50,797 nucleotides of DNA from an uncultured Candidatus Saccharibacteria bacterium. Its GTDB lineage: Bacteria > Patescibacteriota > Minisyncoccia > UBA6257 > JAUSGH01. The DNA is taken from contig CAYHUD010000005.1 in NCBI GenBank assembly GCA_964360025.1, forward strand, positions 1 through 50,797, written 5' to 3'. The translations under genes and the position numbers were made by a program. Below, one piece after another: positions 4,088 through 44,065 of the stretch. Each line of letters starts with the position of its first letter. The stretch's first letter is position 1. The notes under the pieces are model-generated. The model had not been told where the DNA came from. It worked only from the letters and a program-made list of their open reading frames with translations, and made no database searches.

Positions 4088-4206
4088 ATCCCGTTAGAAA
4101 TAGCGGACGCAAATAACACAACGTATATATGTCGAAAACAATATTATCAAAAGTAAAAAATCTGGAACGCAGGACCTTGACGTCCGCGTCCTATTTCTAA
4201 CGGGAT
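4088..4206. mobile_element. MITE-like element with ATCCCGTTAGAAATAG terminal inverted repeats at the rpmJ start codon
   Basis: Perfect 16-bp IR at 4088-4103 / 4191-4206; ATGAA occurs on both sides (4084-4088, 4205-4209). Confidence 0.75.
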
Positions 4207-7704: not shown

Positions 7705-7735
7705 TTTCGCACAGTAAGGCGAGGGGGTGGGTCAG

Positions 7736-7760
7736 AGGGGGCGGCATTACCGCCCCCTTT
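7736..7760 (+). terminator. Probable intrinsic terminator after rpsI
   Basis: agggggcgg-catta-ccgccccct followed by Ts. Confidence 0.6.
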
Positions 7761-7822
7761 GTGTAGGAAAATATTAAAAACCGAGGGTTTTTAAGGAGCG
7801 AAGCGACGCCTCATTGGGCGAA

Positions 7823-7866
7823 GCGTTAAAAAATAAAACCACGGAAGGGGTTTTATTTTTTAACGC
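7823..7866. repeat. Perfect 18-bp inverted repeat
   Basis: gcgttaaaaaataaaacc / ggttttattttttaacgc with an 8-nt loop. Confidence 0.85.
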
Positions 7867-7879
7867 AGAATACAAGTCT

Positions 7880-8004
7880 TGACTCCGGCAGTGCTTTTGT
7901 AGAGACTAAAAGCGAAGCGCAGCCCTCGTTATACGTCGGAGACCTGCCTGCCGGTAGGCAGGCGCGAGGGCGAAACGGTCTCTACAAAAGCACTGCCGGA
8001 GTCA
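7880..8004. repeat. Palindromic element copy 1: conserved ~70-bp core with perfect 27-bp inverted arms
   Basis: Arms 7880-7906 / 7978-8004; core 7907-7977 closely matches 42933-43002 and contains cctgcctgccggtaggcagg. Confidence 0.85.
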
Positions 8005-8023: not shown

Positions 8024-9319
8024 ATGAAATTTATCATTAAAGGCGGGAAAAAACTTGAGGGCGAAATTACTTTATCGGGCGCGAAAAACGCGGCGACTAA
8101 AATGATGATCGCCTCGCTTCTCACCGAAGACGAGTGCGAGCTTTTTAATTTTCCGGGCATCGGCGACGCCGAGATTACAGCCGAGCTCTGCCGTTCTTTG
8201 GGGAGCATTATTCAGAAAGAGGGGAGTGTTTTGCGCATCAAAACTCCGGCGATCACTAATTTTAAAGTGACTTCGCTTTCGCGTAAAAATCGCATTCCAA
8301 TTTTGGCTTTAGGGCCCTTGCTTTTACGCGTCGGTGAGGCGGAGATTCCTTTTTTGGGCGGGGATAAAATCGGGGCGCGTCCGGTGGATATGCACCTTTT
8401 AGGACTCCGCGCTATGGGCGCCACGATTGAAGTAGTCGGCGACCGTTATGTAGCGAAGGCTCCCCAGGGCCTCCGTGGAGCGAGAATTACGCTTAAATTT
8501 CCCTCGGTTGGAGCTACAGAAAATATTATTTTGGCCGCGACTTTGGCCAAGGGGCGGACGATCATTAAAAATGCCGCTAAGGAGCCGGAGATTATTGATT
8601 TGATTAAAATGTTGCAAAAAATGGGTGCGATTATTGAAATCGGCGCGCACCGGACTATCTATATTGACGGAGTTCCGCGGCTCCACGGTTGCCGCCATGA
8701 AATGCTCCCCGACAGAAATGAGGCCGTTTCTTTCGCGTGCCTCGCGGTTGCGACCGGGGGCAATGTTCTTCTGCGCGGGGCCGTACAGGAACATCTTATT
8801 ACTTTTCTCTCGACTCTTCGGCGCATTGGCGGCGAGTATGAGGTAGAGTCGCGCGGCATCAGATTTTTTTCCCGCGGACCGCTCCGCGGCACCGAGCTGG
8901 AGACGGACACCCACCCGGGATTTATGACTGACTGGCAGCAGCCATTCATCGTGCTTTTGACGCAGGCGGAGGGGACGTCGGTGATTCACGAGACAATTTA
9001 CGAAGATCGCTTCGGCTACGCGGAGGATTTGAATAAAATGGGAGCGGATATTCATGTTTTTTCCAAGTGTTTGGGCGAGCTTCCCTGCCGCTTCAATAGC
9101 ATGCACTTCAAGCATAGCGCTGTGATTAACGGATCGCGGAAACTTCGCGGCACGAACCTTACCGTGCGCGATCTGCGGAGCGGCATGGCTCATATCATAG
9201 CGGCGCTTGTGGCGGAAGGCGAGACGACGATTGACGGCATAGAAGAAATTGACCGCGGCTACGAACGCTTAGACGAACGTCTCCGCGCTTTGGGGGCGGA
9301 TATTGCGAGAGTAGAATAA
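8024..9319 (+). CDS. murA: UDP-N-acetylglucosamine 1-carboxyvinyltransferase
   Basis: LSGAKNAA, GGDKIGARPVDMH (Asp at the usual Cys position), PSVGATEN, NAAKEPEI, PGFMTDWQ, IDRGYE. Confidence 0.96.
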   Translation: MKFIIKGGKKLEGEITLSGAKNAATKMMIASLLTEDECELFNFPGIGDAEITAELCRSLGSIIQKEGSVLRIKTPAITNFKVTSLSRKNRIPILALGPLLLRVGEAEIPFLGGDKIGARPVDMHLLGLRAMGATIEVVGDRYVAKAPQGLRGARITLKFPSVGATENIILAATLAKGRTIIKNAAKEPEIIDLIKMLQKMGAIIEIGAHRTIYIDGVPRLHGCRHEMLPDRNEAVSFACLAVATGGNVLLRGAVQEHLITFLSTLRRIGGEYEVESRGIRFFSRGPLRGTELETDTHPGFMTDWQQPFIVLLTQAEGTSVIHETIYEDRFGYAEDLNKMGADIHVFSKCLGELPCRFNSMHFKHSAVINGSRKLRGTNLTVRDLRSGMAHIIAALVAEGETTIDGIEEIDRGYERLDERLRALGADIARVE

Positions 9320-9333
9320 GTTGTTAATTTTTA

Positions 9334-9375
9334 AATGTCTACTAACGCGAACGATCGTTCGCGTTAGTAGACATT
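9334..9375. repeat. Perfect loopless 42-bp palindrome
   Basis: aatgtctactaacgcgaacga|tcgttcgcgttagtagacatt. Confidence 0.92.
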
Positions 9376-9988: not shown

Positions 9989-10026
9989 TGTCTACTAACA
10001 CAAACGATCGTTTGTGTTAGTAGACA
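9989..10026. repeat. Perfect loopless 38-bp palindrome, second copy of 9334-9375
   Basis: tgtctactaacacaaacga|tcgtttgtgttagtagaca. Confidence 0.92.
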
Positions 10027-16069: not shown

Positions 16070-16192
16070 ATCCCGTTAGAAATGACGGACGCGTTTAAAA
16101 CCACTATGCTATCTATACTACAACTGAAATTATCAACTACTAACAACTTAGCGCGCGAATGTTTTAAATTCGCGCCCTATTTCTAACGGGAT
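16070..16192. mobile_element. CCCGTTAGAAAT element at the frr start codon
   Basis: 14-bp IR atcccgttagaaat 16070-16083 / 16179-16192; ATGG on both sides; shares the internal cggacgc with the rpmJ copy. Confidence 0.75.
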
Positions 16193-42898: not shown

Positions 42899-43033
42899 AT
42901 AAAACAGCATACCCCCCCACTTTTTAGGAGACTAAAAGCGAAGTGCAGCCCTCGTTATAGCCAGAGGCCTGCCTGCCTGTAGGCAGGCACGAGGGCAAAA
43001 CGGTCTCCTAAAAAGTGGGGGTATGCTGTTTAT
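42899..43033. repeat. Palindromic element copy 2: same core as 7907-7977, different inverted arms
   Basis: aaacagcata(c)n actttttaggagac ... gtctcctaaaaagt(g)n tatgctgttt; arms differ only in homopolymer lengths. Confidence 0.85.
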
Positions 43034-43048
43034 GGTAGAATTAAGGTG

Positions 43049-44065
43049 ATGCAGAAAATCATTTCTTTTGTTCTTTCAGAGGCGCCACGGCTCAAGGGCG
43101 GCGAGGCGTTGGCCGTATCGCGGAGCGAAAGCGCCCCGCACTATTTCGGCGCATCCGTGCCCAAGCAGATTCTTTTAGATAAGGAACAGCACGATGTAGG
43201 CGGCAATAAAGTCCAGTTTCTGGTTAAAGCATATCTGCCTGATATTTTGGTAGTGGAGGCGGCCCTGGAAGTGGATGATATTTTTTCTGATAAGGCGTTT
43301 GAACTGCGAGATGCGATGGTTGATAAGTGTCATGCGGTTGTAAAACGCCGTGGCGGAAAGTTTGATTTTAGCGAAGAATATTCAGTAGCGATTGTTTCGG
43401 AGTATGTTGGCGGTCCGGAGCAGTTTTTTGAGTACGGGTCTCGTATCGCTAGCTTTTTAAAATCTGAAAAATTACCCCTTGATGAAAAGGAAGTGGAGTA
43501 TACTCTCGCTTCGCAGATTAAATACGGCAAGGATGATTTAGTCGTTGCCGACTGGGATGGCGCTTTTATCTTTGATCCGCACGGAGAATATCAATCCATC
43601 GTAGAACTGTTCCAGGTAGCTAATCTTCAGCTTCTGCGGTATCGCGTGCTGGATTATGAACTGGACGACCGCTTGAAAAAGGTTAATAAAACTTTGCAAG
43701 GGACTAGCAAGAAACTCACTTTTTTTAAGGATAAGGAATTAGGCGACGCTTTCCGCGATGCCATTGCCACTCGTTCGCGTTCCATTGCCGAGTTTGAAGC
43801 TATGGACCGGGAAATAAAACTAATCGGCGACTGGTACTACGCCCGTCTTTACGAACTAGTCGGGAAAAAAATGAAGCTGGATACCTGGAAAAACTCTATT
43901 AAAGAAAAATTAGATTCCCTGGAAGATGTTTATTCTATTGTTGCCGAAAATTTTAGTATCTCCCGCACGCACTTTTTGGAGTTGATTCAGATTATTCTAT
44001 TCTTTATTCTTCAGGCTGGTTGGTTCGTCTTAATTATTTTGGAGTTTATTTATTTCACGAGATAA
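43049..44065 (+). CDS. Hypothetical protein with C-terminal TM (RMD1/DUF155-like)
   Basis: YGKDDLVVADWDGA, ANLQLL..R.LD, IGDWYYARLY, LELIQIIL. Confidence 0.65.
   Translation: MQKIISFVLSEAPRLKGGEALAVSRSESAPHYFGASVPKQILLDKEQHDVGGNKVQFLVKAYLPDILVVEAALEVDDIFSDKAFELRDAMVDKCHAVVKRRGGKFDFSEEYSVAIVSEYVGGPEQFFEYGSRIASFLKSEKLPLDEKEVEYTLASQIKYGKDDLVVADWDGAFIFDPHGEYQSIVELFQVANLQLLRYRVLDYELDDRLKKVNKTLQGTSKKLTFFKDKELGDAFRDAIATRSRSIAEFEAMDREIKLIGDWYYARLYELVGKKMKLDTWKNSIKEKLDSLEDVYSIVAENFSISRTHFLELIQIILFFILQAGWFVLIILEFIYFTR

Follow-up and report, generated by a model that had tools for sequence, protein, structure and literature searches.

Two copies of one sequence in the genome of an uncultured Saccharibacteria bacterium sit on long inverted arms that seem to belong to the site rather than to the sequence, raising the question of what kind of element this is and how it comes by its arms. 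Here, the window means the whole stretch of 50,797 nucleotides that was analysed; the genome to which it belongs, G000, comprises 682 kb in 25 contigs (labelled C1, C4 and so on). An initial annotation, made from the letters alone, had delimited both copies correctly (Table 1) and had described a common core between arms that are perfect in copy 1, carry only homopolymer slips in copy 2 and are unrelated between the two. Measurement bears this out. In copy 1, 27 perfect Watson-Crick pairs connect 7880–7906 with 7978–8004 around an interior of 71 nt, and 22 bp of this arm lie outside GAGAC/GTCTC. The arms of copy 2 (42902–42932 with 43003–43031, or 42899–43033 when the outermost A/T pairs are included) form 29 pairs with two gap positions, located in a C/G homopolymer. 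The cores, 7902–7982 and 42928–43007, are 90.1% identical over 81 columns (7 mismatches, 1 gap), and a 32-mer common to both occurs twice in the window and not once in 100 shuffles. Beyond ∼8 nt from the GAGAC/GTCTC helix (P1), the similarity between the arms of copies 1 and 2 is at background. Single-strand folding of the + strands gave −84.7 kcal/mol for copy 1 (z −12.8) and −79.8 kcal/mol for copy 2 (z −11.2); none of 200 shuffles folded as well, and the covariance model scores the two copies at 91.6 and 94.6 bits, respectively.

Copy 1 is flanked by genes for ribosomal proteins L13 and S9 on one side and by a MurA-type gene (Pfam EPSP_synthase) on the other, whose ATG at 8024 follows the end of the hairpin after 19 nt. 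Copy 2, which has a dehydrogenase-like gene and a gene without a Pfam family as neighbours, ends 15 nt before an ATG at 43049, so that the annotated distance of less than 20 nt to a start codon holds for both. When the flanks were read by eye, no direct target duplication was found adjoining the arms of copy 1, copy 2 or a third copy on C4, in agreement with the annotation, which had contrasted the copies with ordinary MITEs and their direct duplications. Among contigs of four public metagenome runs from three studies, copy 1 including its arms is identical in contigs from two studies. Thirteen nucleotides upstream of copy 1, positions 7823–7866 hold an 18-bp perfect stem, preceded by an A-run and followed by a T-run, that has the shape of a bidirectional terminator. 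Another intergenic segment, after the S9 gene (7723–7816), reaches a summed contig depth of up to 165 in four metagenome runs, against 3–5 nearby; several contigs of relatives carry parts of it, Rfam holds no match, and it is apparently a conserved motif or a widespread repeat.

Table 1. Features of the two window copies and of the adjoining promoter-like box. Positions are those of the window.
Feature	Position	Strand	Basis or remark
Copy 1, entire hairpin, 125 nt	7880..8004	+	perfect inverted repeat, fold, covariance-model match
Copy 1, outer 5' arm, locus-specific	7880..7894	+	pairs with 7990-8004; no second match in genome
Copy 1, start of conserved unit: T-run, 3-nt linker, P1 5' strand GAGAC	7895..7906	+	pairs with 7978-7989
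Copy 1, internal-loop 5' side, 15 nt, TAAAAGCGAAGCGCA, near-invariant	7907..7921	+	alignment columns
Copy 1, P2 helix around small P3 hairpin and nested mini-palindrome	7922..7971	+	P2 is 7922-7928 with 7965-7971
Copy 1, nested 20-nt GCCTGCC-type mini-palindrome, in P3	7943..7962	.	separate repeat family
Copy 1, internal-loop 3' side, 6 nt, GAAACG	7972..7977	+	conserved columns
Copy 2, entire hairpin, 135 nt	42899..43033	+	arms, fold, covariance-model match
Copy 2, P1 to P1	42928..43007	+	P1 is 42928-42932 with 43003-43007
Copy 2, loop sides	42933-42947 and 42997-43002	+	read from sequence
Copy 2, P2	42948-42954 with 42990-42996	+	read from sequence
Copy 2, nested mini-palindrome	42968..42987	.	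same position as in copy 1
Extended -10-like box TGGTAGAAT of downstream gene	43033..43041	+	first base is last base of copy 2 3' arm

The anatomy of the conserved unit, hereafter the head, was derived from an alignment of seven copies and a covariance model. From its 5' end the element runs through the outer arm, a T-run, a linker of 2–4 nt, P1, a 15-nt loop side, P2 and a loop with P3, and returns through the 6-nt loop side GAAACG, P1, the linker and an A-run to the other outer arm. P1 (GAGAC/GTCTC) has 5 bp and P2 (GCCCTCG/CGAGGGC) 6–7 bp; the internal loop between them is asymmetric, 15 nt against 6 nt, and its 5' side, which reads TAAAAGCGAAGYGCA across copies, is near-invariant. This unpaired sequence hardly differs between genomes of two families, and the first 8 nt outside P1 are also common to the copies. 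Bounded by the T-run and the A-run, the head measures ∼75 nt and is carried on a stem of ∼31 bp in total, giving small, non-coding hairpins of ∼105–135 bp.

The helices of the head covary. In an alignment of 28 rows, which was fitted to the covariance model and thus somewhat favours structure, and in which one row is a weak reverse-strand match, standard pairs fill 92.6% of pair cells, compared with 71.7% in shuffles and ∼43% with slid partners. Both-sided changes occur at 19 of its 24 pairs, including four of the seven in P2, where 97.9% of cells are paired, and P1 pairs covary among copies as well. Over the arms of 27 copies we counted 757 Watson-Crick pairs, 19 G-T, 9 A-C, 38 other mismatches and 25 gap positions; tandem G-A mismatches were seen by eye next to P1 in several linkers from several lineages. 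The excess of G-T over A-C (19 to 9), together with the tandem G-A mismatches, hints that folding takes place on the strand shown, and would fit either single-stranded DNA or RNA. No family of Rfam 15, which includes the twister, hammerhead, pistol and hatchet ribozymes, matches the element: four tRNAs were the only gathering-score matches in the window, and the best match at E up to 10 was MIR820, a generic long hairpin, with 24.9 bits against a gathering score of 196. A terminator scan called no intrinsic terminator for the whole hairpin, whose T-run is part of the stem, 5' of the head.

In all, ∼28 copies are full, two are mini variants that lack P2 and one is truncated, and the distribution of the family is patchy. 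Seven of 81 related genomes searched, all Saccharibacteria-like, carry the element. The covariance-model search found three full copies (the third on C4) and a truncated one in G000 itself; the latter lies on C10 beside DNA ligase and pilin-like genes, with nothing mobile next to it. Among 61 related genomes seven matched, six of them convincingly, which amounts to four of the five other genomes of the window's family and G059 from another family. The loop motif is missing from both weak matches in G013 (E 4e-4 and 3e-3), A+T-rich hairpins that were treated as false. Within the family of G059, two of 21 genomes matched, both of one genus (g51); these congeners, G059 with three copies and G070 with five, have no flanks in common, so that the element occupies different sites in each. 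None of 80 metagenomic MurA loci contained it, the closest of these loci being 72% identical in protein, and of 17 pattern matches in viral contigs none was convincing by the model (best 15.5 bits). All copies lie between ORFs except one in G003 (G003:C32), where the upstream ORF reads into the 5' arm. Relative to flanking genes, as judged from crude ORF calls of 100 aa or more, 13 of 26 copies are in sense orientation, 11 in antisense and two between convergent or divergent genes. A possible G000 orthologue of the copy in G001 would lie at the end of contig C2, 67 nt before the gene.

If the head is shared, what of the arms? Including P1, the outer stem has a median length of 31 bp and measures 25–37 bp in 24 of 27 copies, a constancy compatible with descent from a single hairpin design. 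The sequence of the stem is another matter. Between copies of the same genome, arm identity is high for the 8 nt outside P1 and falls to background (∼0.25–0.3) beyond 8–12 nt, as seen in G000, G002, G003 and three copies of G004; for copy 1, identity to the other copies reaches background over the same interval. Shared sequence gives way abruptly to unshared sequence at the end of the T-run and the A-run, and the outer 15–20 bp are unrelated among copies in four genomes, their pairing being kept and their sequence not. The case is clearest in G003, where the cores are 92–98% identical, loosely constrained loops included, and identity between outer arms is 0.44–0.67 (shuffles, 0.52 ± 0.08). Since near-identical cores stand on random arms there, plain divergence is insufficient, and either the heads have been homogenised or the arms have truly been replaced. 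In genus g51, by contrast, arms are homologous among copies, with identity declining gradually from 0.86 to background over ∼20 nt. The annotated uniqueness of the arms thus stands for G000 and three related genomes but fails for seven copies in G004 and for genus g51, and recurrence of arms among copies is what the annotation itself had named as counting against its model.

Two copies depart from the common pattern of arms. A local duplicate of arm sequence of at least 12 nt was found for only one of 27 copies, G003:C32, in which the 5' arm includes 16 nt that directly repeat gene sequence found 69 nt upstream, and has overwritten that gene's stop codon. At this locus (L053, element at reverse-strand 936–1018), a glycosyltransferase-like ORF runs through the 5' arm and stops at a TAA in the head; the resulting tail of ∼12 residues is missing in the G005 orthologue. 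The second case is G059:C2, which has a stem of only 15 bp and no outer arms, and whose 3' flank is homologous in two species without the head. This flank is either native or the remnant of an older copy; in g51 genomes, its motif showed no enrichment over a control pattern, and the arm motif of G070:C33 yielded no further clear copy.

Sites without the element bear directly on the origin of the arms. The annotation had proposed that one flank is duplicated in inverted orientation upon insertion, and therefore expected one ancestral arm at empty sites in relatives. At the site of G059:C5, conserved anchors are separated by 25 nt in the sister species G069, and by 19 nt, a 115-nt hairpin and 10 nt in G059. 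At the site of G070:C45, G069 has a bidirectional terminator only, and G070 has 33 nt, the hairpin and 14 nt, such that the insertion exceeds the hairpin by these 33 and 14 nt. G069 lacks both arms at these two orthologous sites, a comparison made, like the others of this kind, in draft assemblies and across species (flanking genes ∼77–89% identical) or genera. The spacing at copy 2 tells the same story: in three other genera, the orthologous region consists of a terminator stem, 11–13 nt and then a −10 box (TGGTAGAAT or TGGTATAAT), and in the window this spacer would shrink to 8 nt without the whole hairpin, to ∼34 nt without the head and one arm and to ∼60 nt without the head alone. This fits insertion of the whole hairpin and not of a core plus one arm. 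Together with the recurring arms, these comparisons leave the inverted copying of a flank unsupported wherever it could be tested.

Other sites are less direct. The G070 site orthologous to G059:C5 contains a stretch resembling the 3' arm of another G070 copy, a resemblance that suggests decay of older copies. For copy 1, the same-genus genome G001 has a MurA gene only ∼70% identical and a spacer with two small ORFs instead, and MurA upstream regions are not alignable among genera. No joint across the element, as an empty allele of copy 1 would give, was found in contigs of the four public runs from three studies, and neither G001 nor the metagenomic MurA loci nor the public-run contigs provided an empty allele of the window copies from a close relative.

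One subfamily differs from the window copies. In G004, the seven copies with common arms lie inside a frame of ∼170 bp with the inverted repeat GTAACCCCTCACRCT at its ends, and this repeat occurs at 53 sites in the genome, compared with eight for the reversed control pattern. By eye, at least seven of 12 frames are flanked by direct repeats of 7–8 nt. With these terminal repeats and target duplications (direct, 7–8 bp), the G004 subfamily qualifies as a classical MITE. A search of G004 for the frame without its head gave no match. Within the arms, a block of 4–5 positions varies between copies, and in five of the seven the changes on the two arms match; one copy is apparently a recombinant between arm types. 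A further copy, G004:C12b, has terminal repeats like those of the main frame but unrelated inner arms, and G004 heads are interrupted by other small inverted-repeat elements. Arms are therefore inherited from copy to copy in two lineages, G004 and genus g51.

We compared the family with known systems. REP/REPIN elements are short intergenic palindromes that are thought to be recognised as folded single strands and are often nested or clustered. The present hairpins likewise are short intergenic palindromes, nested and defined by their fold, but REPs are shorter, and in them the stem sequence itself is what is conserved; moreover, unlike REP/REPIN elements with their RAYT, three of the seven element-bearing genomes lack a Y1 transposase gene. 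A Y1 transposase was rejected as partner enzyme since it does not consistently co-occur: in the seven element-bearing genomes, all incomplete drafts, PF01797 (the sole transposase family searched) was found in G001–G004 and not in G000, G059 or G070. Conservation in the attC sites of integrons falls on the hairpin fold and a small number of unpaired bases instead of the stem sequence, arm sequences differ from site to site, and an asymmetry marks one strand. Our elements share these three properties. However, attC has its conserved boxes at the base of the stem and a variable tip, the reverse of the arrangement seen here, and no cassette arrays accompany the element. Neisseria Correia elements and the RIP/BIME elements of E. 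coli are small intergenic inverted repeats with a central protein-binding motif that alter expression. They too are small inverted repeats between genes with a functional central motif, but their inverted ends are conserved family-wide, and the central motif is an ordinary double-strand site and not a structured asymmetric loop.

Among known elements, prokaryotic MITEs come nearest to the family; their defining features were taken from PMC10969869. Like the MITEs described there, the elements are small, non-coding, intergenic and multi-copy, form a stable stem-loop and are patchily distributed among relatives. Their length of 105–135 bp is well below the limit of ∼500 bp, and they occupy several sites with presence/absence variation among relatives. 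Terminal inverted repeats common to the family are found in G004 and in part in genus g51 but not in G000, G002 or G003, and direct target duplications, seen by eye in the majority of G004 frames counted above, are absent from the three G000 copies. The G000 copies thus fail two features of the class, shared terminal repeats and direct target duplication. In contrast to MITEs, moreover, the conserved part is the centre of the hairpin and not its ends, which differ from copy to copy in four genomes. Small mobile repeats usually have conserved ends and a middle that is free to vary; this family reverses the rule, and a conserved middle with variable ends points to a folded single strand that would be recognised through unpaired bases. 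We conclude that the copies belong to an undescribed family of small hairpin repeats in Saccharibacteria-like genomes; neither the family nor MITEs in Patescibacteria are described in the literature at the level of titles and abstracts.

How, then, does the element come to stand on different arms? Our preferred reading, offered tentatively as one that may well hold, is a foldback, MITE-like DNA element that inserts as a whole hairpin, with a selected head and self-correcting arms of fast turnover. It draws on the patchy distribution, the different sites in congeners, the empty sites that lack both arms, the inherited arms of two lineages, the transposon marks of the G004 subfamily and the constancy of stem length. 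The inserted unit would be the complete hairpin including its arms. The head would be the selected part, most likely as a folded single strand recognised via its unpaired bases by a mobilising protein. The outer arms would need only to pair, and might be kept perfect by template switching within the hairpin (quasi-palindrome correction) or by selection, either of which could change both arms together. If only pairing is needed, similarity between the arms of different copies would be lost much faster than that between heads, which within one genome would be conserved or perhaps homogenised. Template switching has been argued (PMC5941160) to be the force that keeps inverted repeats perfect, and it accounts for perfect arms and paired changes on two arms; being a mutational process and not an element, it leaves the conserved head and the new sites unexplained on its own. 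Paired arm change has a parallel in the window, where the palindromes 9334–9375 and 9989–10026 behave like the variable arm block of G004. Several results sit badly with insertion of a whole hairpin: the random arms on near-identical cores in G003, the sharp boundary (which also fits a smaller, head-only mobile unit), the absence of a common terminal repeat or direct duplication from the three G000 copies, and G059:C2, whose head could have arrived without arms. The search among Y1 transposases yielded no mobilising enzyme, and the empty-site comparisons are weakened by their distance across species or genera and by the insertion at G070:C45 that is larger than the hairpin.

Some of these results lend weight to the idea that the head alone is mobile and gains a new stem of ∼17–20 bp with each move, by fold-back synthesis or from the tips of existing palindromes, which we consider improbable overall. 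In one form of it, the head, from T-run to A-run, inserts at the dyad centre of a palindrome that was there before and that then supplies the arms. The sharp end of similarity at the T-run and A-run and the G003 arms are as this form predicts, and suitable targets abound, since G000 has 98 perfect inverted repeats (arms of at least 14 bp within 150 nt) where ∼0.4 are expected in random sequence by our arithmetic, many of them loop-free, 40–48 bp long and grouped in families. Nesting of palindromic elements is also abundant, as illustrated by the mini-palindrome, which occupies P3 in the two window copies and the 5' loop in G004:C2b, by the elements that interrupt heads in G004, and by the like terminal repeats around unrelated inner arms in G004:C12b and the main frame. 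However, the compared empty sites contain no palindrome, the headless frame has no match in G004, and the head-bearing arms of G000 fall outside the repeated palindrome families and do not look terminator-like by eye, these being the kinds to which most G000 palindromes belong. The narrow range of stem lengths would moreover demand a special class of targets, and we regard insertion at palindrome centres as unlikely. The other form is that of the annotation, in which the head inserts beside ordinary DNA and fold-back priming or template switching makes an inverted copy of one flank, so that a newly made arm faces one of ancestral target DNA. Neither arm being present at the two sister-species sites, the spacing at copy 2, the recurring arms of G004 and genus g51 and the single local arm duplicate among 27 copies all argue against it, even though the duplicate itself, in G003:C32 with its overwritten stop codon, counts in its favour. 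It would further account for the sharp boundary, for the armless G059:C2 with a 3' flank homologous in two headless species and for the perfect arms of copy 1 (27 of 27 pairs) next to the mismatched arms of other copies, and inverted repeats are known to undergo template switching (PMC5941160); we nevertheless consider this form distinctly unlikely.

The last alternative dispenses with mobility. The head might be a structured non-coding or cis-regulatory RNA, the stem its closing or processing helix and the copies paralogous genes. Strong covariation, conserved unpaired bases and a constant stem length are what such an RNA would show, the + strand favours G-T over A-C mismatches, and the tandem G-A pairs next to P1 (by eye, in several lineages) are stable only on the + strand; a second head family of ∼110 nt in G000 likewise combines a unique arm, a T-run and a head. 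But orientation to neighbouring genes is mixed, no promoter-like site lies beside the window copies, and self-cleaving ribozymes are among the Rfam families that fail to match. Positions differ even between congeneric genomes, the distribution is patchy, and the G004 subfamily has the terminal repeats and target duplications of a transposon, all of which make an RNA function of the family very unlikely.

Should arms indeed be made anew at each insertion, this would be a new insertion mechanism. Head-only mobility, if true, would mean a mode of insertion that yields inverted and not direct target repeats, which to our knowledge has not been described for bacterial elements, and the second head family with the same layout would then make it a general mechanism in these bacteria. 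More broadly, nested palindromic elements offer a natural system for studying how hairpins arise, stay perfect and move.

Returning to whole hairpins in short intergenic spacers, we considered what the window copies may do to their neighbours. Genomes of Saccharibacteria and similar bacteria are very small and have short intergenic spacers, so that a hairpin of 100–130 bp comes to sit on promoters, terminators and gene ends, and copies landing there are able to displace or abut promoters and stop codons. Copy 2 abuts a −10 box that recurs in three other genera, and a relative's copy has replaced a stop codon. The box TGGTAGAAT precedes the orthologous gene in G003 and G005 and has the variant TGGTATAAT in G004; its function is predicted from the consensus, and a simple promoter scan made no call at its position. 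The scan likewise found no sigma-70-type promoter beside either window copy. An effect of the window copies on expression is plausible from their placement.

The head is one of several palindromic repeats in this genome. The inner CCTGCCTGCCKGTAGGCAGG of both window copies is an independent 20-nt palindromic repeat, outside the conserved core proper: it stands alone at no fewer than nine other places in G000 (C1 at 12463, 12577, 49412, 49577 and 49986, C8:795, C14:16952, C15:12939 and C19:5248) and is missing from the third full copy on C4, and in G004:C2b a mini-palindrome of this type occupies a different place in the head, the 5' loop. Since it has the same position in copies 1 and 2, these are sister copies. 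The mini-palindrome often lies within a longer frame, gagattcttcgc...ctcagaatgac, and one is located just upstream of an ORF whose start looks GIY-YIG nuclease-like by eye.

The second head of ∼110 nt forms a three-way junction with YAGCGAC hairpin loops and covarying stems and has no Rfam match. It occurs in G000 at C4:55044–55193, C10:26642–26797, C15:13745–13891 and C21:267–414, each of these four copies on its own perfect arms of 15–22 bp beside a T-run, and also at L177 (G004:C18). Loop-free perfect palindromes of 38–44 bp follow directly on stop codons at 9334–9375, 9989–10026 and C1:46811 of G000; the family that they form reads AATGTCTACTA...AACGA|TCGTT..., with an inner block that differs per copy and is changed on both arms. 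At 4088–4206, 16070–16192 and ∼20 more places in G000 are elements of ∼120 bp bounded by the inverted repeat ATCCCGTTAGA(n)4-5, whose interiors are A+T-rich and which look like another MITE-like family. Yet another family of perfect palindromes consists of GGATACGCCACTTCCRAAG, a T-run, an A-run and the complement, with arms of 19–25 bp and loops of 0–9 nt, and was found in G000 at C6:448, C4:26588, C7:12120, C10:5418, C1:15307, C14:17025 and C4:25458. One relative of this family, on C15, is interrupted by the mini-palindrome.
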